NCBI GenBank assembly: GCA_964355655.1
Contig: CAYHDT010000002.1
Location: 15,598-79,597 of the forward strand
Length of the DNA stretch: 64,000 nt
Direction: 5' to 3'
DNA from: an uncultured Candidatus Saccharibacteria bacterium
Lineage (GTDB): Bacteria; Patescibacteriota; Minisyncoccia; Phycocordibacterales; SBAW01
Shown piece after piece: positions 3,633 through 20,794 of this stretch. The translations under genes were made by a program, and so were the position numbers. The notes beneath the pieces are model-generated. The model saw nothing but the letters and a program-made list of their open reading frames with translations. It did not search any database and had not been told where the DNA came from. Numbering within the stretch: the first letter of the stretch is position 1; each line of letters begins with the position of its first letter.

Positions 3633-4580
3633 ATGGATAGACCAAAAGCGACGCCGAAGGACTTCTTTTTGTGGGCGGGAGCCGTTGTTTCGCTTTACGC
3701 GAGCATCGTGTCTTTTATCACGCTCCTGTTCGAATACATTGACCACACGTTCCGGGATACCGCCCTTGAGTCTTGGTATGACCCATACGCGGGAGGCGTG
3801 GCTTATGCCATGGCGTCTCTTATAGTGCTCGCGCCGGTGTTCCTGATATTGATGCGTGTCATCCGCCGCAACATTATCGCCGACCCGAGCCGCAACGAAG
3901 TGTGGGTCCGCCGCTGGGCGCTCTTTTTGACCGTCTTTCTTGCAGGGGCCACTATCGTCATCGACCTGATTGTCCTGTTAAACACTTTCCTTTCCGGAGG
4001 CGAGCTAACGACAGCCTTCCTGCTTAAAGTGCTGGTGGTGCTGTTGGTGGCCGGCGCGGGCTTTATGCACTTTCTTGCCGACCTGTGGGGTTACTGGGAC
4101 AAAAATCCGCACTACGCGCGCTACATCAACTGGGCTACCGGAGTACTCGTGGCACTGACCATTGCCGCAGGTTTCCTTATTATCGGCTCGCCGCAGAGCC
4201 AGCGCGCGCTGCGCATCGACAGTCAGCGCGTAAGCGACTTGCAGTCGCTCCAGTCGCAAATAGTGTATCTCTATCAGCAAAAAGAGCGCTTGCCTGCAAC
4301 CCTTGCCGAGCTTAACGACCCGCTCTCTTATTACACCGTGCCGATGGATCCGGAGAGCAAGGAAGCTTATGGCTACGCCGTCAAAGGTGCGCTGACCTTC
4401 GAGTTGTGCGCGGACTTTGCGACCGCGGGAACTGTCGACCAATACGGCAAAACAGTCGCGGCGCCTTCTATTTATGGCATGAGCGACAAATGGGAGCATA
4501 AAGCCGAGCGCACCTGCTTTAGCCGCACCATCGACCCACTCCTCTACCCGCCGTACTCTAAAGGCATTCCTGTCCGCTAA
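3633..4580 (+). CDS. DUF5671-like integral membrane protein, typical of CPR bacteria
   Basis: Multiple TM helices in the N-terminal half and a soluble C-terminal domain. Confidence 0.55.
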   Translation: MDRPKATPKDFFLWAGAVVSLYASIVSFITLLFEYIDHTFRDTALESWYDPYAGGVAYAMASLIVLAPVFLILMRVIRRNIIADPSRNEVWVRRWALFLTVFLAGATIVIDLIVLLNTFLSGGELTTAFLLKVLVVLLVAGAGFMHFLADLWGYWDKNPHYARYINWATGVLVALTIAAGFLIIGSPQSQRALRIDSQRVSDLQSLQSQIVYLYQQKERLPATLAELNDPLSYYTVPMDPESKEAYGYAVKGALTFELCADFATAGTVDQYGKTVAAPSIYGMSDKWEHKAERTCFSRTIDPLLYPPYSKGIPVR

Positions 4581-5611: not shown

Positions 5612-8452
5612 ATGGCGGAAAAGTACGACCACAAAACCATCGAAAAAAAATGGCAGGAGCGATGGGAAAAGGAAGGCGCTTTCCGCGCGGAGGACACATC
5701 GGATAAGCCGAAACAATACATACTCGACATGTTCCCGTACCCTAGCGGCGACGGACTGCACGTGGGACACGTCGAAGGGTACACAGCGACCGATATCTAC
5801 AGCCGCTACAAGCGTATGAAAGGCTTTAAGGTTTTGCACCCGATGGGGTGGGACGCGTTTGGCCTGCCGGCGGAGAACTACGCCATAAAGACCGGCGTGC
5901 CACCGCAAGAGACGACTGATAAATCGATAAACAACTTCCGCAGGCAGATTAAAGCCCTTGGCCTTTCCTACGACTGGTCGCGCGAGATTGGTACGCACAA
6001 CCCGGATTACTATCGCTGGACGCAATGGCTCTTTGCCAAATTTTTTGAAAAGGGTTTGGTGTACAAAAAGAAAGCGCTGGTCAACTGGGACCCGGTCGAC
6101 CAGACCGTGCTCGCCAACGAGCAGGTCCTTCCCGACGGCACCGCCGAGAGAAGCGGCGCCAAAGTAGAGAAGCGTGACCTGGAGCAGTGGTTTTTTAAGA
6201 TTACCGATTATGCCGACGAGCTTGCCGACTCGCTCGACCAAGTAGACTGGCCCGAGTCGACCAAAATAAACCAGCGCAACTGGATAGGCCGCTCGGAAGG
6301 AGCAGAACTTACCTTCAAAATATCAAGGTCGAACCTTGATGTAAAAGTATTTACCACGCGGCCGGATACGCTTTTTGGCGCAACGTACCTGGTGTTGGCT
6401 CCTGAACACCAGGAAATCTCAAATCTCAAACAACAAATTACAAACTGGGACGAAGTACTTCGATATATCGAAGTGGCAAAAAACAAAAACGATATTGAGC
6501 GTTCTGCAGAAGGGAAGGAAAAAACGGGTGTTGAGCTTAAGGGTATTAAAGCGATTAATCCGGCAAATAAAGAAGAAATCCCCGTATATATCGCCGATTA
6601 TGTGCTCGGTCATTATGGAACAGGCGCGATTATGGCCGTCCCCGCGCACGACGAGCGCGACTTTGAGTTTGCTAAGAAGTTTAATTTGCCAATACGCGAG
6701 GTTGTAGTGCCGGACAGAATAGATCCAAAAAACCCTCCGCTGGAAGGAAAAAAGAATGTCCCACGCCGCACTGTCCAGGTGGTGTTGCGCCGCCCGGCTG
6801 ACGGCAAGATCGTCGTGTTGCACTGGAGCCACCACTCATGGAAGACGCTGCTTATCGGCGGAGTAGAGGAGGGCGAAGAATTGATAGGGGCGGCAAAAAG
6901 AGAGATTTTGGAAGAAGCAGGGTACAAGAATATCCGCTTTGTTAAAGAGTTGGGGGATATGTACGCGGGTTACTTCGCCTCGCATAAAGATGAGAATCGC
7001 CGCGCCTATGTAACCGGCCTGCTTTTTGAACTTGTTGACGAGGAAAAAGAAGAAATCTCCGCTGAAGAAAAAGCGAAGCATGAGCCGGTATGGATGACTA
7101 TTGAAGAGGCAAAGGCGATTGTCATTGGCGTCGAGCCCCCGATTTTCTTAGAGCGGCTGGAAAAAGATTTGTGGGTATATACAGGCAAGGGTACGCTCGT
7201 TCATTCCGGAGCTTTCGATGGCGTTTCAAACGAAGAAGCCAAGAAAAAAATAGCCGAGGCGGTAGGCGGAGTGATGAAGAAGACCTACCGCCTGCGGGAC
7301 TGGCTGATTAGCCGCCAGCGGTATTGGGGGGCGCCTATACCTATTGTGTATGACCCGGAAGGCAAACCGCACGCGGTGCCCGAGGAACACCTGCCTTGGA
7401 TGCTGCCTACCGACGTGGAGTTTAAGCCGACCGGTACCTCGCCTTTGGGGCAGTCAAAAGAGCTTTTGGAACGCACTGAAGCGTTGTTCGGCAAGGGCTG
7501 GAAGCCCGAGATAGATACCATGGACACTTTTGCCTGCTCGTCGTGGTACTTTTTTCGCTTTGCCGACCCACGCAATGAACGTGAGTTCGCAAGCAAGGAA
7601 CAAATGCAAAAATGGCTGCCTATCGACCTATACGTCGGCGGAGCCGAGCACACCGTGTTGCACTTACTGTACGCGCGCTTTTTTACCAAAGTCCTGCGCG
7701 ACATGGGGTACCTTTCCTTTGACGAACCGTTTCTTAAACTCCGGCATCAAGGGACCATCCTTGCAGAGGATAGCCGCAAGATGAGCAAACGCTGGGGCAA
7801 CGTTATCAACCCCGACGACATGGCCGACAGATTCGGCGCCGACGCGCTGCGTATGTACGAAATGTTTATGGGCCCGCTGGAGGCTATGAAGCCGTGGAGT
7901 ACCAAGAATATAGCCGGTCTAGAGCGTTTTTTGGAGCGTGTGTGGAAGCTCGGCGAAAATCAAGGACAGTCCTTGGAGAGCCCTGAGCTAAGGACTGTCC
8001 TTAGCCCGGCTCTTGAGACTCTGCTCAACCAAACCGTCAAAAAAATCGGGGAGGATATTGAAAATCTTAAGCTGAATACAGCCGTTTCGGCGTTGATGAT
8101 TTTGCTCAATGAGTTGGAGAAGGGAGCTCCTCGCGCCGCATACGAAACGTTTATACAATTACTTGCCCCTTTTTCTCCGCACATAGCCTCCGAGCTTGCG
8201 GAAAGGGCGGGTATCTCGATTGTGGAATGGCCTACGTATGACGAGTCTAAACTGCTTTCCGAGACGGTAAAAATCGCGGTTCAGGTCAACGGCAAGGTAA
8301 GGGTAACTCTGGAATTCCCGATATCAGTCACTAAAGAGGAAGCACTTGCTGCCGCCCGTCTAAACGCTATAGTATCAAAATGGCTAGGGGAGGAGGAGGT
8401 CAAAAAAGTAGTATACGTGCCGGGCAAGATTATTAGTTTTTCCACAGAATAG
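5612..8452 (+). CDS. leuS: Leucyl-tRNA synthetase carrying an inserted Nudix hydrolase domain (about aa 383-510)
   Basis: HVGH at the N-terminus, a TTRPDT editing motif, and GTGAIMAVPAHDERD. The inserted segment has a perfect Nudix box GGVEEGEELIGAAKREILEEAGY (GX5EX7REUXEEXGU). The sequence resumes with YRLRDWLISRQRYWG. Confidence 0.95.
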   Translation: MAEKYDHKTIEKKWQERWEKEGAFRAEDTSDKPKQYILDMFPYPSGDGLHVGHVEGYTATDIYSRYKRMKGFKVLHPMGWDAFGLPAENYAIKTGVPPQETTDKSINNFRRQIKALGLSYDWSREIGTHNPDYYRWTQWLFAKFFEKGLVYKKKALVNWDPVDQTVLANEQVLPDGTAERSGAKVEKRDLEQWFFKITDYADELADSLDQVDWPESTKINQRNWIGRSEGAELTFKISRSNLDVKVFTTRPDTLFGATYLVLAPEHQEISNLKQQITNWDEVLRYIEVAKNKNDIERSAEGKEKTGVELKGIKAINPANKEEIPVYIADYVLGHYGTGAIMAVPAHDERDFEFAKKFNLPIREVVVPDRIDPKNPPLEGKKNVPRRTVQVVLRRPADGKIVVLHWSHHSWKTLLIGGVEEGEELIGAAKREILEEAGYKNIRFVKELGDMYAGYFASHKDENRRAYVTGLLFELVDEEKEEISAEEKAKHEPVWMTIEEAKAIVIGVEPPIFLERLEKDLWVYTGKGTLVHSGAFDGVSNEEAKKKIAEAVGGVMKKTYRLRDWLISRQRYWGAPIPIVYDPEGKPHAVPEEHLPWMLPTDVEFKPTGTSPLGQSKELLERTEALFGKGWKPEIDTMDTFACSSWYFFRFADPRNEREFASKEQMQKWLPIDLYVGGAEHTVLHLLYARFFTKVLRDMGYLSFDEPFLKLRHQGTILAEDSRKMSKRWGNVINPDDMADRFGADALRMYEMFMGPLEAMKPWSTKNIAGLERFLERVWKLGENQGQSLESPELRTVLSPALETLLNQTVKKIGEDIENLKLNTAVSALMILLNELEKGAPRAAYETFIQLLAPFSPHIASELAERAGISIVEWPTYDESKLLSETVKIAVQVNGKVRVTLEFPISVTKEEALAAARLNAIVSKWLGEEEVKKVVYVPGKIISFSTE

Positions 8453-8497: not shown

Positions 8498-9544
8498 ATG
8501 GCAACACAAATAGCGGACAAAACGGGCTTTAAGCCCAAGGCAATCGTCAAAAAGCTCATGGTAGCGCTCCCGGAGCGCTCCCGCATTGTGCTTGAAAGCC
8601 GCTTTGGCCTAGGTGCTTCCCCCGAGCGGGTAACGCTCGAGGCTATCGGCAAGCGCTACGGCATTACCCGCGAGCGCGTCCGCCAGATAGAAAATCACGC
8701 TTTGGCAGCGCTTAAGAAGTCTCCCGCATTTGCCAGCGCCGAGGCGGCCTTTGAGGAGCTCGAGCGTATTATCGATGGGCTTGGCGGCATCGTCTGCGAG
8801 GACGACCTTTTGAACTTCATGACCAAGGACAAGTCGATGCAGAACCATATCTACTTCCTTTTGGTGCTCGGCGACCCGTTTAAGTTCCGCAAGGAAGACG
8901 ACGAGACTAATCGCTGCTGGTATGTCGATGCCGAACTGGCCAGCAAAGTAGAAGGCGCGCTTAAAACGCTCTATGGCGGGCTGTCCGACGAAGACCTTAT
9001 CCCGGAGGGCGAGATGATCGACCGCTTCCTTAAAGAGCTCCAAAACATCAACGACAAACACCGCAACCAGGAAGTGTTGCGCCGCTGGCTCACTATTTCG
9101 AAATCTATCGGCAAAAACCCGCTCGGGGAGTGGGGCCAGGCATCATCGCAGAATGTTAAGACAAAAGGCGTGCGCGACTTTGCCTACTTGGCGGTCAAAA
9201 AGCACGGCTCCCCGTTGCATTTCCGCGAGGTGGCGACACTGATTGAAAAGATGTTCGACCGTAAAGCGCATGTCGCCACTACCCACAACGAGCTTATTAA
9301 AGACGGGCGCTTCGTGCTGGTAGGCCGCGGCATGTACGCGCTGCGCGAGTGGGGCTACACCGAGGGCGTCGTGCGCGATGTTGTGCGCGAAGTTTTGCGC
9401 AAAAACGGTCCGATGACCCGCGACCAGATAATCGAAAAAGTGCTTAAAGAGCGCCATGTCAAACCGGGCACGATTGTCGTCAACCTCCAAAACCAAAAGT
9501 ATTTCAAGCGGGGCAAAGACGGCAAATTCTCCCTCGTTAAGTAA
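8498..9544 (+). CDS. Sigma-70 region-4 (HTH) domain protein, a CPR-typical stand-alone family
   Basis: TLEAIGKRYGITRERVRQIENHALAALKK matches the sigma-70 region 4 HTH. The rest of the protein has no sigma regions 2 or 3. Confidence 0.6.
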   Translation: MATQIADKTGFKPKAIVKKLMVALPERSRIVLESRFGLGASPERVTLEAIGKRYGITRERVRQIENHALAALKKSPAFASAEAAFEELERIIDGLGGIVCEDDLLNFMTKDKSMQNHIYFLLVLGDPFKFRKEDDETNRCWYVDAELASKVEGALKTLYGGLSDEDLIPEGEMIDRFLKELQNINDKHRNQEVLRRWLTISKSIGKNPLGEWGQASSQNVKTKGVRDFAYLAVKKHGSPLHFREVATLIEKMFDRKAHVATTHNELIKDGRFVLVGRGMYALREWGYTEGVVRDVVREVLRKNGPMTRDQIIEKVLKERHVKPGTIVVNLQNQKYFKRGKDGKFSLVK

Positions 9545-13104: not shown

Positions 13105-13167
13105 CGCACCAGCGGCCGTTAACGGCCGCTTTTTCTTTTGCAGCACACGGTATGGTATAACTTGCCC

Positions 13168-14379
13168 ATGTTTCTGGGGGATAAGAAAATATCACGCAAA
13201 CCTAAAGTGTTTGTAGGTTTAAGCGGCGGGGTGGACTCGGCTGTTTCAGCCGCTTTGCTGCAAAAAGAGGGCTACAATGTGACCGGCGTTTTTATACGCA
13301 TCGCAATCGACGGCTACCCGTGTACCGCCGGAGAAGACAAGCTTGACGCCATGCGTGTCGCGGCGCATTTAAAAATACCTTTTCGTACAATTGATTTGTC
13401 GGAAGAGTACAAAAAGAAAGTTTTTGATATTTCAATAAAAGAATTTGAGAAGGGGAGAACCCCAAACCCCGATGCGTTGTGTAACCGTGAAATAAAATTT
13501 GGCCTCTTCTTCGACTGGTGTATGGAGCAGGGCGCCGCCTTGGTCGCTACGGGGCATTATGCGCAAATTGCTCCAGCAAAATCTGTCCAGAAAAAGGTCC
13601 TCGGGTCTCCTGTCTCGGCCAAGACGGAAGAGGCCGGCAGGCCAGACCATTTTTCTAAACAGATTTTGCTTCTGGCTGGTGCAGATCCCGACAAGGACCA
13701 GTCTTACTTCTTGTGGGCCGTACCCGAAACAAAGCTGCGTAAAACGCTGTTTCCTGTCGGGAATTTAACTAAGCCGGAGGTGCGCAAACTGGCGACAGCG
13801 TTTGGTCTGCCGAATGCCGCTCGGAAAGACAGTCAGGGACTCTGTTTTCTTGGGCCTGTATCGATGGACGATATGCTCCGGCAGGAACTAGCACTTGTCC
13901 CCGGTGATGTGATTGATATGCAAGGCGCCCCCATAGGCCGGCACGAAGGCGCGGCCGCCTATACGCTCGGCCAGCGGCACGGGTTTGAGCTTAATGCTCA
14001 TACTCCCGATATTCGACCTCACTTTGTGGTGGCAAAAAATGTCGCGGCAAACACTATTACCGTGTCTACCGAGCGGTTTCCTCAATCTGCGACAGAAACA
14101 CAAATCGAGTTAAGCGATACTAATTGGATAGGGCCTTACTCCGCTGAAGCTACGGAGGGCAAAAAGCTTGCAGCAAGGTATCGTTATCGGCAAAAGCTTA
14201 TTCCGGCTGAGGTAGATTTTGACAAAAGCATCGTTACACTTTTTGAGCCGCACTTTGTGCCGGAAGGCCAGTCGCTTGTTTTGTACGACGGGCAGCGGTG
14301 TCTCGGCGGCGGTGTTATACTAACTGCCAAGTATGGCGATATTCATCGCGAAAGCGGACGGCACGCAAGAGCCGTATAA
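13168..14379 (+). CDS. mnmA: tRNA-specific 2-thiouridylase MnmA
   Basis: PP-loop VFVGLSGGVDSAVSA, catalytic CNREIKF region, and GLCFLG motif. Start chosen at MFLGDKK. Confidence 0.9.
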   Translation: MFLGDKKISRKPKVFVGLSGGVDSAVSAALLQKEGYNVTGVFIRIAIDGYPCTAGEDKLDAMRVAAHLKIPFRTIDLSEEYKKKVFDISIKEFEKGRTPNPDALCNREIKFGLFFDWCMEQGAALVATGHYAQIAPAKSVQKKVLGSPVSAKTEEAGRPDHFSKQILLLAGADPDKDQSYFLWAVPETKLRKTLFPVGNLTKPEVRKLATAFGLPNAARKDSQGLCFLGPVSMDDMLRQELALVPGDVIDMQGAPIGRHEGAAAYTLGQRHGFELNAHTPDIRPHFVVAKNVAANTITVSTERFPQSATETQIELSDTNWIGPYSAEATEGKKLAARYRYRQKLIPAEVDFDKSIVTLFEPHFVPEGQSLVLYDGQRCLGGGVILTAKYGDIHRESGRHARAV

Positions 14380-15175
14380 TCCGGAAAAACTTGTTTCCTC
14401 ACTCATGCGCGCCGGCGCTGAACAGCAATTGGCCCGCGATATTTCCCGCGCCGTCGAGTCGGAGCTCTACGCGGGCATTACCACTCAGGAGATTTACCGG
14501 CACGCTTTTTCCAAACTGCGCGAGTCCAGGCGGGGAGCGGCCGCCCGTTACAGCCTAAAGCGCGCGATACTTGAATTTGGCCCGTCCGGATTTCCCTTCG
14601 AAGCTTATATATCGGAGCTTTTCCGCGCCGAAGGAGCACAGACGCAAATAGACCAGATAATTAAAGGAGCGTGCGTCGAGCACGAAGTCGACGTAGTTGT
14701 GCATCAAAACGGTGCGATAACCTACGTGGAGGCAAAATTCCACAACGCGGCCGGTTTTAAGACAGACCTGAAAACAGTTCTGTATGTTAAAGCGCGCCTC
14801 GATGATATTGCCGCGGCCCGCAAACAAAGAGGTTTGCACGAGCCCATGCGCGGGTTGGTGGTGACTAACACCAAATTTACGAGTGTTGCCGCACAATACG
14901 CTTCTTGCGCCGGGGTTGAAATTTTGGGATGGGAAGAGCCGGACGGCAAAACTCTCCACGACCGCATAGACGCGGCCGGATTGTACCCCGTAACGGCGCT
15001 CACAACGCTCAATCGGCGCGAAAAAATAGCTCTTCTTAGCCAAAAAATAGTGCTCTGCAATGCGCTGGGCGCAGACACCCGGGCTCTTGCCAGGACCGGT
15101 ATAACGGGACAAAAGGCCGATCATGTGTTGGAAGAGGTGGGAGCCTTGTGCGTACCGGGTAAGGATATAGAATAG
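14333..15175 (+). CDS. ATP-cone domain fused to an Mrr-like (PD-(D/E)XK) restriction endonuclease domain
   Basis: N-terminal ATP-cone (MAIFIAKADGTQEPYNPEKLVSSLMRAG...). Mrr_cat-like core VDVVVHQNGAITYVEAKF. Overlaps the mnmA 3' end by 47 nt. Confidence 0.65.
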   Translation: MAIFIAKADGTQEPYNPEKLVSSLMRAGAEQQLARDISRAVESELYAGITTQEIYRHAFSKLRESRRGAAARYSLKRAILEFGPSGFPFEAYISELFRAEGAQTQIDQIIKGACVEHEVDVVVHQNGAITYVEAKFHNAAGFKTDLKTVLYVKARLDDIAAARKQRGLHEPMRGLVVTNTKFTSVAAQYASCAGVEILGWEEPDGKTLHDRIDAAGLYPVTALTTLNRREKIALLSQKIVLCNALGADTRALARTGITGQKADHVLEEVGALCVPGKDIE

Positions 15176-18862: not shown

Positions 18863-20794
18863 TTACCAAACCTTGGCGCGGGAGGAGGGCTCGCGGTAGA
18901 GCTTGTCTCCTTTTTTAACGCCGAACGCCTGGTAAAACGGATCGAAGTTGGAGAGCGGGCCGTTGACGCGCCAAAAGCTTTCAGCATGGGGGTCGGTCAG
19001 GGCGGCGAGTTTTTTAAACTCAGGCCGCGCGACCTCCCGCTCCATTTGCGCGTAGCCAAAAAAGAAACGCTCTTCCGGCGAAAGGCCGGCGATAGTTTTG
19101 CGGCCCGCTTTTTTAAGATGCCGCTGGTATGCTTCGTACGCGATTACCAACCCGCCCATATCAGCCATATTCTCGCCGAGCGTTAGCTGGCCGTTGATAT
19201 GCACGCCGGGCTCTACTTCAATTTTGTTCGCCTGCGATACAAACAATTTGCTCTTTTGCATAAAGCGCTTGCGATCTGCAGCAGTCCACCAGCTTTTCAT
19301 ATTGCCTTTGGCGTCAAACTTCGAGCCTTGGTCGTCAAAGCCGTGCGTTATCTCGTGGCCGATGACCGAGCCGATGCCGGCATAATTGATCGCCATGTCA
19401 GCACGCGGGTCAAAGAACGGCCATTGTAAAATAGCGGCAGGAAAAACTATTTCATTGAGATTCGAGTGGTGGTAAGCATTGACCGTTTGCGGGTACATAA
19501 ACCACTCGGCGCGGTCTATCGGCTTGCGCAGCTTACTCATCTGCTTGCGGTGGTGCCACTGTGCCGCCCGCAACATGTTGCCGAAATAATCGCCCGAATC
19601 TATCGCCAGCCCTTTATACCTCTCCCACTTGGACGGGTAGCCTATTTTGCGCGCCATGGCGCGCAGTTTGATTACCGCTTTGCGCTTGGTGGGGAGAGAC
19701 ATCCAGTCGAGATTTTTTATATGGCTTTCATAAACGTCGAAAAGGTCGCTTACCAATGCGTCCATGGTCCGCTTAGAGGCCGCGGGGAAGTGACGTTTGA
19801 CATACAGGGCCCCAAGCGCTTCGCCGACGGCGCTGGTGCTTCCTAGCGCCCGGCGCCATGGCGCGCGCATCTTTTTTTGCCCGGTAAGCACGGAGGTATA
19901 TTTGAAATTTTCTTTAATAAACCGCGACGAGAGCAGGGAGGAGGTGCCGCTTATGACGTGCCACTCGAGATACGTCTTCCAGTCTTCAAGAGGAATGGTC
20001 TCAAGCATTGTGCTTACTGTTTTAAAAAAATTCGGCTGGCCGACAATGAGCGTTTTGATGCCCCGCGCATGAGTGCGGGCGAAGTAGGCGGCCCAGTCAA
20101 CCTGGGGCGAAAGCTTTTGCAGCTGCGCGACGCTCAACTTGTGGTACACCTTTTCAGAATCACGGGTGTCTTCCTGCCGCATTGAGGCTTCTGCCAGAGC
20201 GGTCTCTATCTTCATGACCGTTTTCTGCGCGCCCGTAATGCGGCTGGGGTCAAAAGCGGCGAGTTTCAGCAGTCGACCAATGTATTCAATATAGGCGGCG
20301 CGCACGCGTTTTTGCTCGGGTGCATCAAGCAGATAATAATCGCGCTCGGGCATCCCCAGGCCCCCCTGCCATAGATGGAGCAGATATTTCGAGGAATCTT
20401 TGGCGTCCTGGTCGACTACGCTGCCCCAGCAGCCCGAGACGCCGAGCACGTGCAGCCGCGCGATAACCCCCAGCAGGTCTTCTTTGGTCTTTATATCGCG
20501 CACCAGCATGCGCAGCGGAGCCATCGGCCCCATGTCGAGTTTGTTGCGGGTCTTCATGTCGATAGCGGAGCAGTAGATTCCGCTTACCAACGGGTGCTTT
20601 GTGCCCGTGACTATTTTTTTGAGCTGCTGCTCGGTCCGGTAGCGCAGGGCCGTAAAGGACCCCCAGCGCGACTCCTCAGGTGGAATCTTCGTCCTCTTAA
20701 GCCAGCTGCCGTTGGTGTAATGATAGAAATCATCCTGCGGCCGCACCGAGCGGTCGATGTCTTTCGTATCAAATCCCCAGTACTTTTTAGTCAT
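18863..20794 (-). CDS. pepO: M13-family zinc metalloendopeptidase (PepO/neprilysin-like)
   Basis: HEITH zinc-binding motif (VIGHEITHGFDDQG). Length and overall layout typical of M13. Confidence 0.85.
   Translation of the reverse strand: MTKKYWGFDTKDIDRSVRPQDDFYHYTNGSWLKRTKIPPEESRWGSFTALRYRTEQQLKKIVTGTKHPLVSGIYCSAIDMKTRNKLDMGPMAPLRMLVRDIKTKEDLLGVIARLHVLGVSGCWGSVVDQDAKDSSKYLLHLWQGGLGMPERDYYLLDAPEQKRVRAAYIEYIGRLLKLAAFDPSRITGAQKTVMKIETALAEASMRQEDTRDSEKVYHKLSVAQLQKLSPQVDWAAYFARTHARGIKTLIVGQPNFFKTVSTMLETIPLEDWKTYLEWHVISGTSSLLSSRFIKENFKYTSVLTGQKKMRAPWRRALGSTSAVGEALGALYVKRHFPAASKRTMDALVSDLFDVYESHIKNLDWMSLPTKRKAVIKLRAMARKIGYPSKWERYKGLAIDSGDYFGNMLRAAQWHHRKQMSKLRKPIDRAEWFMYPQTVNAYHHSNLNEIVFPAAILQWPFFDPRADMAINYAGIGSVIGHEITHGFDDQGSKFDAKGNMKSWWTAADRKRFMQKSKLFVSQANKIEVEPGVHINGQLTLGENMADMGGLVIAYEAYQRHLKKAGRKTIAGLSPEERFFFGYAQMEREVARPEFKKLAALTDPHAESFWRVNGPLSNFDPFYQAFGVKKGDKLYREPSSRAKVW

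Follow-up and report, generated by a model that had tools for sequence, protein, structure and literature searches.

The leucyl-tRNA synthetase (LeuRS) encoded in the stretch of DNA analysed here (the window, 64,000 nucleotides in length) carries a genuine Nudix domain inserted into its editing domain CP1; this is confirmed, the fold of the insert being confidently predicted and its motifs intact. We propose that the insert is an autonomous and catalytically competent Nudix pyrophosphohydrolase, carried by LeuRS as an exchangeable cassette and acting in trans, a proposal that in our opinion has about an even chance of being right. The features concerned, in the coordinates of the window, are the following:

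5612..8452, + strand: LeuRS gene, 946 aa, bacterial type, without leucine-specific domain (open reading frame, TIGR00396, 1H3N alignment, AF2)
5759..5770, + strand: HVGH, the HIGH signature of the synthetic site, aa 50-53 (sequence; nearly invariant in alignment A1)
6275..6724, + strand: N-terminal part of the CP1 editing domain, aa 222-371 (PF13603 profile positions 1-146 of 185)
6353-6370, + strand: TTRPDT editing motif, aa 248-253, within the N-terminal part of CP1
6617-6661, + strand: GTGAIMAVPAHDERD editing segment, aa 336-350, within the N-terminal part of CP1
6731-7192, + strand: Nudix module as delimited by the family HMM, aa 374-527 (match of 199.6 bits)
6746..7174, + strand: inserted Nudix domain, aa 379-521, about 143 aa (PF00293, gap against 1H3N, AF2, Foldseek)
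6857..6925, + strand: Nudix box GGVEEGEELIGAAKREILEEAGY, aa 416-438 (exact fit to GX5EX7REUXEEXGU)
6971..7003, + strand: subfamily motif [FY][YF]AxHKxENR, aa 454-464 (aromatic pair plus K459, N462 and R463)
7175..7279, + strand: C-terminal remainder of CP1, aa 522-556, YTGKGTLVHSGAF hairpin and helix (1H3N alignment)
7286-7330, + strand: YRLRDWLISRQRYWG, the return point from CP1 to the catalytic core (sequence)
7778..7792, + strand: KMSKR, the KMSKS loop, aa 723-727 (K723, M724, S725 and K726 conserved in alignment A1)

Judged from its sequence, the host enzyme is intact in its synthetic and editing motifs (HVGH, KMSKR, TTRPDT and GTGAIMAVPAHDERD are all present), as the first-pass annotation had claimed for LeuRS outside the insert. 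It scores 976.4 bits against the NCBIfam equivalog TIGR00396 (cutoff 548.4), in two stretches with the insert between them; T248, T249, R250, D252, T253 and D347 are invariant in an alignment of 109 relatives, and the AF2 model of the full-length protein has a mean pLDDT of 90.5 and a pTM of 0.81. The enzyme has in common with the LeuRS of T. thermophilus (1H3N, 2BYT) and E. coli (4AQ7, 4ARC) the HIGH and KMSKS signatures, the threonine-rich and aspartate editing motifs, the anticodon-binding and C-terminal domains and the overall fold. It differs in its missing leucine-specific domain (T. thermophilus residues about 580-625 are unmatched) and in having a domain of 143 aa where the CP1 loop of the T. 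thermophilus enzyme consists of one or two residues. Neither a second LeuRS nor another Nudix gene (that is, a possible paralog that would make the inserted copy spare) was found within the 64-kb window, and Rfam and tRNA scans of it were empty.

Aligned to T. thermophilus LeuRS (1H3N), aa 3-378 correspond to residues 2-374 and aa 522-719 to residues 376-580, so that the extra segment is aa 379-521; since the match to the Pfam editing-domain model PF13603 is broken at profile position 146 of 185, this segment lies within CP1. The claim of a Nudix-fold domain between the KKFNLPIREVVVP and YTGKG segments is borne out by Pfam, AF2 and Foldseek alike, although the limits first proposed (aa 383-510), which do fall inside the insert, were slightly too narrow. 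Each of the checks suggested in the first-pass annotation (an HMM search, a structure prediction and a survey of LeuRS in related genomes) gave a positive outcome. The Pfam NUDIX model PF00293 matches the full LeuRS at aa 384-500 (E=1e-12, 48.6 bits) and the segment 6758-7141 alone with E=1.3e-14 and 54.8 bits, for a gathering score of 21.1, and the module recognised by the family HMM includes a conserved N-terminal linker, PxxIDxxNPPxEGKKNVxR. The Nudix box, perfect with respect to the published definition (PMC10148737), is the only match to it in a six-frame translation of the window and contains the predicted metal-binding glutamates E431, E434 and E435, so the catalytic glutamates are indeed in place, as had been stated. 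The GC content of the insert resembles that of its flanks, which led us to reject a recent transfer marked by a shift in composition; only a purine-rich skew stands out, and it fits the many Glu, Lys and Gly codons.

When modelled alone by AF2, the insert folds as a Nudix domain with a pLDDT of 94.2 and a pTM of 0.87 (the helix of the Nudix box being predicted at aa 424-436), and within the full-length model its pLDDT is 92-97 throughout. Foldseek recognises the alpha/beta/alpha Nudix fold with probability 1.0, with TM scores (normalised to the target length) of up to 0.81, to 2AZW, and at the same probability retrieves M. smegmatis MutT1, M. tuberculosis Rv2985, RppH, the Aquifex Ap4A hydrolase, the T. 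thermophilus Ap6A hydrolase Ndx1, NUDT2 and DIPP. The top matches of the family profile are AvrM14 and the lupin Ap4A hydrolase, and this profile places other Nudix enzymes above the DIPPs; a single-sequence search of the PDB gives DIPP as its best but weak match (3MCF, E=4.9e-6, 30 bits, Foldseek identity 24%). With Nudix enzymes of the DIPP, ApnA-hydrolase and RppH kind (human NUDT3/4/10, flax-rust AvrM14, the lupin and Aquifex Ap4A hydrolases, T. thermophilus Ndx1, M. smegmatis MutT1, M. tuberculosis Rv2985 and E. coli RppH) the insert shares the alpha/beta/alpha fold, a canonical box followed by basic and aromatic residues, and a length near 150 aa. It is, however, only 15-27% identical to solved Nudix structures, and its subfamily has features of its own (the [FY][YF]AxHKxENR motif and the N-terminal NPPxEGK linker) and is found mostly inside aminoacyl-tRNA synthetases (aaRS), whereas those relatives are free enzymes. 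None of the NCBIfam equivalogs tested on the insert reaches its cutoff; the RppH models NF001938 and NF001936 give 25.8 and 20.4 bits for cutoffs of 116 and 118, and the insert is not an RppH ortholog, though it is structurally like RppH.

Among 225 copies of the family, 223 retain E431, 213 E434 and 224 E435, while 223 retain K459, 200 R463 and 192 N462; W494 and R385 are also nearly invariant, and the positions of Y454 and F455, at +16 and +17 after the box, are aromatic in about 95% of copies. A tyrosine about 16-18 residues past the Nudix box was reportedly described by Dunn and co-workers in 1999 as typical of asymmetric ApnA hydrolases, a criterion that is not specific. The subfamily motif would serve for base stacking and phosphate binding. 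The catalytic positions are not strictly conserved throughout the family: about one third of the copies deviate in the box, combining E422Q with A, M or K in place of R430; these copies still keep the three metal-binding glutamates and the conserved basic residues, and in the tandem pairs checked (P0003, P0004, P0006, P0008, P0017) a canonical copy comes first and a variant copy follows. Relative to the L005 ortholog, dN is 0.164 for the insert and 0.18-0.35 for the LeuRS body, hence no higher in the insert (the comparison is of dN and not of dN/dS, because synonymous sites are saturated at this distance). These substitution and conservation patterns indicate that the Nudix insert is under purifying selection.

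A survey of the best 150 cluster representatives (at 50% identity) found this Nudix subfamily in LeuRS in 111 cases and in a prolyl-tRNA synthetase (ProRS) in one, with a query that carried 14 aa of LeuRS flank on each side and so favours LeuRS matches. This dominance of aaRS among the hosts argues for some functional tie rather than for a random passenger. The named relatives of the Nudix-carrying LeuRS are Adlerbacteria, Kaiserbacteria and Paceibacterota; the module occupies several LeuRS sites, with two or three copies in some proteins, and in ProRS, for which the relatives with names are DPANN archaea, it sits at a non-editing position, in a linker. There are also complete free-standing genes of the subfamily, of about 160 aa (P0001 and P0002 were confirmed in their contigs), one of which, P0010, is 50% identical to the insert of the window; a free-standing protein of 160 aa is even misnamed "leucyl-tRNA synthetase" at NCBI. 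We looked for a vestige of CP1 that would identify such copies as excised from LeuRS, which proved uninformative because the stretch conserved at their N terminus is part of the Nudix module. Other domains use the same region of LeuRS: a HAD domain occupies the insertion site of the window in P0222, Ham1, HAD and alpha/beta-hydrolase domains occur at neighbouring sites in other LeuRS, and in P0201 and P0042 Nudix and Ham1 are inserted together in one LeuRS. The fusion is thus widespread, at several sites and in several copies, apparently exchanged between lineages and accompanied by other hydrolase inserts, all of which goes beyond the first-pass annotation. A link with defence systems was also considered and rejected, no family of the PADLOC-DB defence models matching the insert, P0001 or P0010; PHROGs gave generic Nudix families only.

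The histories of insert and body do not agree. The LeuRS of the window and P0154 are 82% identical in the body and 31% in the insert, while the figures are 71% and 75% with P0159, and 66% and 77% between P0161 and P0200. Insert-free LeuRS exist whose body is 83% identical to that of the window, and these sister enzymes keep the same editing residues. A single body cluster (at least 75% identity) contains five insert clusters as well as insert-free forms, and the Spearman correlation between body and insert identity is 0.14 (this incongruence is measured from identities and UPGMA clustering). Such comparisons indicate that the phylogeny of the insert is incongruent with that of the body and that the insert is dispensable in sister LeuRS, and together they point to gain, loss and exchange of a cassette; differential loss from ancestral tandem arrays could account for part of the incongruence. 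More tentatively, and with the balance somewhat against it, one may imagine aaRS surface loops (CP1 of LeuRS in Paceibacteria/Parcubacteria, the ProRS linker in DPANN-related sequences) as recombination-accessible docking sites for swappable hydrolase cassettes (Nudix from many sub-lineages, HAD, Ham1/ITPase, alpha/beta-hydrolase), so that ultra-small symbionts would carry a part of their nucleotide house-cleaning or salvage toolkit inside essential synthetases, the cassettes spreading between lineages, and possibly between both domains of life, via the ultraconserved flanks. These cassettes would be intein-like in their spread but, unlike inteins, would be expressed as working domains and not spliced out.

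According to the cassette proposal, the Nudix module would occupy a permissive surface loop of CP1 (at T. thermophilus LeuRS 374-376), while LeuRS proper would charge and proofread tRNA(Leu) as usual. The tethered domain would bind a divalent metal through E431, E434 and E435 on the Nudix helix, and its likely target would be the pyrophosphate bond of a small nucleoside polyphosphate, for instance ApnA, or of aberrant or non-canonical NTPs; this would be nucleotide "house-cleaning" in trans, outside the leucylation or editing cycle, with LeuRS as an always-expressed carrier with tolerant loops. In favour of autonomy are the free-standing genes, the variety of sites, copy numbers and hosts, the other domains found at the same or neighbouring LeuRS sites, and the insert-free LeuRS. 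Lineages would acquire the cassette, lose it or exchange it for another, plausibly when homologous recombination takes place in the ultraconserved flanks within LeuRS. The catalytic activity of the module, which conservation and purifying selection support indirectly, its substrate class, its action in trans and its mode of recombination are inferred, and the substrate class is a guess, since the closest neighbours in structure and sequence differ in specificity (8-oxo-dGTP, ApnA, RNA 5' ends, inositol pyrophosphates). The insert may also have an integrated interface with the editing pocket or the tRNA.

Several other readings have to be weighed against this one. The insert could clear away Ap4A and other ApnN that its own synthetase forms as by-products from aminoacyl-adenylate and ATP, which would put producer and destroyer on one polypeptide. 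This is appealing in that the hosts are almost only aaRS (LeuRS, and ProRS with DPANN named relatives), that ApnA hydrolases (3I7U, 1VC8, 9CXX, 4IJX, 1F3Y) and RppH bound to Ap4A are among the neighbours, and that a conserved aromatic pair lies 16-17 residues past the box, near the spacing reportedly seen for tyrosine in ApnA hydrolases. Moreover, aaRS are a main source of Ap4A, which Nudix hydrolases degrade (PMC10148737). LeuRS, however, is one of the synthetases that make little Ap4A, the strong producers being LysRS, PheRS and HisRS (PMC10148737), none of which was seen as a host. Furthermore, the insert lies in CP1, away from the synthetic site, close LeuRS relatives do without it, RppH and other NCBIfam equivalog models score far below cutoff, and such a coupling leaves the Ham1, HAD and alpha/beta-hydrolase inserts of the same loops unexplained. 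The Ap4A hydrolysis mentioned in the first-pass annotation is possible but not specifically favoured, and we consider a coupling to the synthetase's own by-products unlikely. The same annotation also suggested hydrolysis of misactivated aminoacyl-adenylates, that is, pre-transfer editing, for which the location in the editing domain is the sole argument. Nudix enzymes cleave the pyrophosphate links of NDP-X compounds, whereas an aminoacyl-adenylate is an acyl-phosphate anhydride of AMP, so that such hydrolysis is improbable on chemical grounds; in addition, sister LeuRS 83% identical in the body work without the insert and retain the same editing residues, and the module is also found free-standing and, in ProRS, at a non-editing position. 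We regard this suggestion as very improbable.

The LeuRS insertion sites in CP1 all lie on the domain that receives the acceptor end of the tRNA; one could think of an activity like that of RppH, Dcp2 or DIPP, by which the insert would remove a 5'-triphosphate or a nucleotide cap from tRNA(Leu) or from some other RNA bound to the synthetase, the more so as the hosts are RNA-binding enzymes, the top profile match is the decapping effector AvrM14, and the neighbours include RppH, Dcp2, DIPP and decapping effectors from oomycetes. We find this decidedly improbable, considering that nothing indicates that the tRNAs of these organisms retain 5'-triphosphates or caps, that free-standing Nudix copies exist, and that the other inserted domains (HAD, Ham1) are small-molecule enzymes. 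A module that has retained the Nudix fold as a structural spacer, or for nucleotide sensing or regulation, seems rather improbable to us: it would agree with the non-canonical box of about a third of the copies, with the canonical-then-variant order of the tandem pairs and with the free variation of insert type among near-identical LeuRS, but the glutamates are present in 213-224 of the 225 copies, the variant class included, together with the basic residues. As for a degenerate structural insert, which had been envisaged at first, it is unlikely for the copy of the window, because the box is perfect, its dN does not exceed that of the LeuRS body and the glutamates are near-invariant in the whole family. 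Finally, the unusual architecture, and nothing beyond it, might evoke an assembly chimera, a neighbouring gene with a frameshift or a selfish element spliced out in the manner of an intein. The reading frame is continuous, the identical protein (P0153) is present in NCBI/ENA on a contig of 114,893 bp, L005 (with conserved downstream gene order) and L006 independently show the same architecture, and so do dozens of independent assemblies, so that we reject an assembly artefact. An intein is rejected as well: no intein, Hint, LAGLIDADG or other endonuclease family appears among Pfam matches at E<=1, no direct or inverted repeats of note flank the insert, the Nudix fold fills the whole of it, and the AF2 model shows insert and host folded jointly at high confidence. 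The artefact and selfish-element readings are effectively refuted.

We return to the proposal of a Nudix cassette and its precedents. In the literature searched, no account turned up of LeuRS with a Nudix domain, or of such a domain in any other aaRS from CPR or DPANN organisms, and no NCBIfam model names a LeuRS of this kind; this agrees with the initial impression that the fusion had not been described, although UniProt and NCBI already contain the architecture without comment. An isoleucine--tRNA ligase with an N-acetyltransferase domain (NCBIfam NF040702) is a precedent for an essential aaRS carrying an extra catalytic domain, and AlaX, YbaK and INS are appended or trans-acting editing domains of other aaRS. 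Those are acyltransferase or editing domains, whereas the LeuRS insert is a predicted nucleotide pyrophosphatase; unlike them, it resides in an internal loop, at several sites and in several copy numbers, with apparent exchange between lineages. The concept of house-cleaning NTP pyrophosphatases (MutT-type Nudix enzymes, Ham1/ITPase) is said to come from Galperin and co-workers in 2006, and its two classic folds, Nudix and Ham1, are both found inserted in these LeuRS; the classical enzymes, however, are free-standing, and no description of their embedding in an aaRS was found in the literature searched.

The aaRS are among the most conserved enzymes, and domains added to them usually point to additional biology. 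If the proofreading domain of LeuRS does contain an active pyrophosphatase, this would be a new aaRS architecture, one that turns up repeatedly in a large radiation of very small bacterial symbionts and again in DPANN-related ProRS, in the company of Ham1, HAD and esterase-type inserts. The combination already causes annotation errors and would distort LeuRS-based phylogenies and length filters. It is unusual for a protein to evolve by exchange of cassettes inside an essential gene, as appears to happen here; if confirmed, the finding would show how genome-reduced organisms package housekeeping chemistry.

The leucyl-tRNA synthetase (LeuRS) of the window carries a Nudix domain (the insert) inside its CP1 editing domain, as the first-pass annotation had claimed; this is borne out by a match to the Pfam family PF00293, by an exact Nudix box and by a gap within CP1 in the alignment with the T. 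thermophilus (Tth) LeuRS structure 1H3N. The features concerned (amino acids numbered on the window LeuRS) are as follows:

5612..8452, plus strand: LeuRS gene, ORF of 946 aa (TIGR00396 bacterial-type leucine--tRNA ligase, 976 bits, cutoff 548)
aa 222-371, plus strand: LeuRS editing domain PF13603 (Pfam, profile positions 1-146 of 185)
aa 379-521, nt 6746-7174, plus strand: extra segment, about 143 residues without counterpart in 1H3N
aa 384-500, plus strand: NUDIX PF00293 (Pfam, E=1e-12, 48.6 bits, gathering score 21.1)
aa 416-438, nt 6857-6925, plus strand: Nudix box GGVEEGEELIGAAKREILEEAGY, exact GX5EX7REUXEEXGU

The alignment is colinear except for a single clean gap (query 3-378 = Tth 2-374, 522-719 = Tth 376-580), so that the extra residues break up CP1. 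The segment initially placed at 6758-7141 is real (scanned alone, it gives a significant PF00293 match, E=1.3e-14), its limits being slightly too narrow relative to nt 6746-7174 (aa 379-521). GGVEEGEELIGAAKREILEEAGY is the sole GX5EX7REUXEEXGU match in a six-frame translation of the window, and we found neither repeats flanking the insert in this LeuRS nor any intein features or break in composition. The remainder of the enzyme was described as intact, and it is: Pfam also matches the class I catalytic core and the anticodon-binding domain, while HVGH, KMSKR, TTRPDT and GTGAIMAVPAHDERD are all in place, with key residues invariant or nearly so in 109 relatives. The leucine-specific domain (Tth ~580-625) is absent from the window LeuRS and from 109/109 aligned relatives; its position corresponds to 7700-7800 of the window (LeuRS aa ~700-725), where some related LeuRS (P0012, P0122) have a HAD or Nudix insert.

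The fusion is found beyond this one stretch. NCBI/ENA lists an identical protein (P0153), encoded on a contig of 114,893 bp, and two independent genome assemblies share the architecture: the contig L005, with a LeuRS of 946 aa, an insert 74% identical and the same two downstream genes, and the Adlerbacteria contig L006 (insert 79% identical). In the AlphaFold2 model of the full-length LeuRS (109-sequence alignment, mean pLDDT 90.5, pTM 0.81) the insert has a pLDDT of 92-97, and modelled by itself (32-sequence alignment, pTM 0.87) it is predicted to fold as a Nudix domain with a pLDDT of 94.2. All its Foldseek matches of probability 1.0 in the PDB are Nudix hydrolases; they include E. faecalis MutT/Nudix 2AZW (TM 0.81, normalised by target length), M. 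smegmatis MutT1, M. tuberculosis Rv2985, RppH, the Aquifex Ap4A hydrolase, the T. thermophilus Ndx1 Ap6A hydrolase, NUDT2 and DIPP. Among solved structures, a sequence comparison puts the DIPPs closest to the insert (3MCF, E=4.9e-6), whereas the profile of its Nudix subfamily (the family HMM) ranks AvrM14, a decapping effector (E=1.2e-8), and the Ap4A hydrolase of lupin (E=6.7e-8) at the top. Every NCBIfam equivalog model falls well short of its cutoff. The insert is a Nudix enzyme of a separate subfamily, with a specificity not assignable from these matches.

The catalytic glutamates had been reported to look intact. The box is indeed exact in the window, and E431, E434 and E435 are kept in 213-224 of 225 near-full-length domain copies taken from all hosts; these and other conserved positions are listed here:

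Residues kept among 225 near-full-length domain copies
E431: 223/225
E434: 213/225
E435: 224/225
K459: 223/225
W494: 221/225
R385: 208/225
R463: 200/225
E486: 202/225

Positions 454 and 455 are aromatic in about 95% of these copies. The strict Nudix box is fitted by 160/240 domain copies, some of the non-fitting boxes being truncated fragments; the main non-fitting class combines E422->Q with R430->A, M or K and retains the three glutamates. This co-varying box marks a large sub-lineage family-wide (for example P0161, P0198, P0207), and in the tandem pairs checked the canonical copy comes first and the variant-box copy second. The window's copy is fully canonical. Between the window and its L005 ortholog, synonymous sites are saturated and the dN of the insert (0.164) is not above that of the LeuRS body, i.e. 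LeuRS without the insert (0.18-0.35); purifying selection on the window's insert is as strong as on the synthetase.

The architecture is widespread among related LeuRS, a survey of which had been proposed. An exhaustive HMMER search with aa 365-535 against 1.84 billion cluster representatives recovered 379 clusters at E<=1e-3, of which 177 reach E<=1e-10. Among the 150 best clusters, 111 are LeuRS or LeuRS fragments with the Nudix domain, 30 are short enough to be free-standing (<=200 aa) and 9 have other architectures, proportions somewhat biased toward LeuRS hosts by the 14 LeuRS residues that the query held on each side. PF00293 is present in roughly two thirds of the 120 closest LeuRS, whose source names include Candidatus Adlerbacteria, Kaiserbacteria, Paceibacterota, Minisyncoccia and Patescibacteria. 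The nearest named relatives of the window LeuRS are Adlerbacteria and Kaiserbacteria (Paceibacteria); given this, the title of the L005 record (CAZRJD010000008.1, 'uncultured Candidatus Saccharibacteria bacterium') may be wrong. P0001 and P0002 are complete free-standing genes of the subfamily (160-161 aa) with unrelated neighbours, and P0010, also of free-standing size, is 50% identical to the window insert, N-terminal linker included. The 160-aa P0001 (L001 2951-3433), which sits among phosphohydrolase-type genes (CYTH, HAD, low-molecular-weight phosphatase), is called 'leucyl-tRNA synthetase' at NCBI, probably an annotation spill-over from the LeuRS-Nudix fusions.

At the window's site, close relatives show three states: a Nudix insert of 144-153 aa, a short loop of 2-23 aa, or a deletion that also takes out the adjoining YTGxGxLxNSGxF hairpin. 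P0162, P0163, P0167, P0170 and others, with about 83% body identity to the window, lack both the insert and this CP1 hairpin, a loss that could reflect the overshooting deletion of a former cassette. Body identity is decoupled from insert identity among close pairs:

Identity of LeuRS body and insert in selected pairs
window vs P0154: body 82%, insert 31%
window vs P0161: body 77%, insert 30%
window vs P0159 (L005 protein): body 71%, insert 75%
P0159 vs P0199: body 80%, insert 22%
P0161 vs P0200: body 66%, insert 77%
window vs P0162: body 83%, no insert

Measured by identity and UPGMA clustering, not by a likelihood test, body and insert are incongruent: Spearman rho is 0.14 (2080 pairs), inserts are <45% identical in 57/98 pairs with body identity >=78%, and a single body cluster (>=75% identity) contains five insert clusters as well as insert-free forms. 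Since comparison of the window with L005 shows no intrinsically fast evolution of the insert, this decoupling indicates that it has probably been gained, lost and replaced repeatedly. A plausible route, as we infer, would be homologous recombination via the highly conserved flanks (AHDERD... and ...RLRDWLISRQRYWG); differential loss out of ancestral tandem arrays could contribute part of the decoupling.

The subfamily also occupies other LeuRS positions, immediately ahead of CP1 or at its beginning (window aa ~209-212 and 237-244) and around aa 586-633. Tandem pairs occur as well, with as many as three copies in one protein (P0003, P0004, P0006, P0017). According to Pfam, other hydrolases accompany or replace it: Ham1/ITPase with Nudix (P0201, P0042), alpha/beta-hydrolase with Nudix (P0221), Nudix with HAD (P0012), and HAD in place of Nudix at exactly the window's site (P0222). 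These domains lie in internal LeuRS loops, and some of the proteins reach 1150-1330 aa. In the ProRS P0107, Pfam places a Nudix of this subfamily after the anticodon-binding domain and ahead of the C-terminal one; a search with this protein gave five insert-bearing ProRS clusters (P0107, P0280-P0283; 146-187 bits against the family HMM), which sit among ProRS that lack the insert and bear the names Nanoarchaeota or Woesearchaeota (DPANN archaea). This placement suggests that the module may have crossed between two domains of life.

The neighbours of the window LeuRS are housekeeping genes, none of which hints at the function of the insert:

70-1044: YchF GTPase
3633-4580: DUF5671 membrane protein
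8498-9544, plus strand: Sigma70_r4 (sigma-70 region 4) + HARE-HTH protein, directly 3' of LeuRS, an arrangement kept in L005
11409-12413: YceG/MltG homolog
13138-14379: MnmA
14333-15175, plus strand: ATP-cone + Mrr_cat protein
18863-20794, minus strand: M13 peptidase

An ATP-cone and an Mrr-type restriction endonuclease catalytic domain in one ORF (14333-15175) is an unusual pairing. The whole 64-kb window (1-64000) contains neither tRNA genes nor matches to Rfam families at the gathering threshold.

What might the insert do? It is not required for LeuRS function, because sister enzymes manage without it. The reading that best fits the data is an autonomous, predicted active Nudix pyrophosphohydrolase carried by LeuRS, because the module also occurs at other positions, in other hosts and free-standing, and because other small-molecule hydrolases sit in the same or nearby loops. 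Its substrates would be nucleoside polyphosphates, such as ApnA or aberrant NTPs, in a house-cleaning role, since its sequence and structure neighbours and the co-embedded Ham1 point there. The first-pass annotation had offered three possibilities. That a Nudix domain would hydrolyse misactivated adenylates is implausible on chemical grounds, and a purely structural or degenerate insert is unlikely in the case of the window's copy. A domain dedicated to clearing the Ap4A made by aaRS is an attractive idea, nearly all hosts being aaRS, but LeuRS produces little Ap4A (Goerlich et al. 1982, as cited in PMC10148737), which weakens it. Action on the RNA 5' end of the bound tRNA, which the decapping-type relatives of the insert would favour, is a minority possibility.

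Full-text literature searches turned up no account of LeuRS, or of any aaRS from CPR or DPANN organisms, with a Nudix domain. Precomputed Pfam annotations already show the architecture, as do UniProt and NCBI records; A0A1F4Y1K9 and A0A1F4XWZ1, both LeuRS with the Nudix insert, are labelled just 'Leucine--tRNA ligase' in UniProt. It is not a new kind of system: Nudix hydrolases and aaRS with an accessory domain are both known. What is most surprising is the apparent exchange of the cassette, together with its recurrence in ProRS related to those of DPANN archaea.
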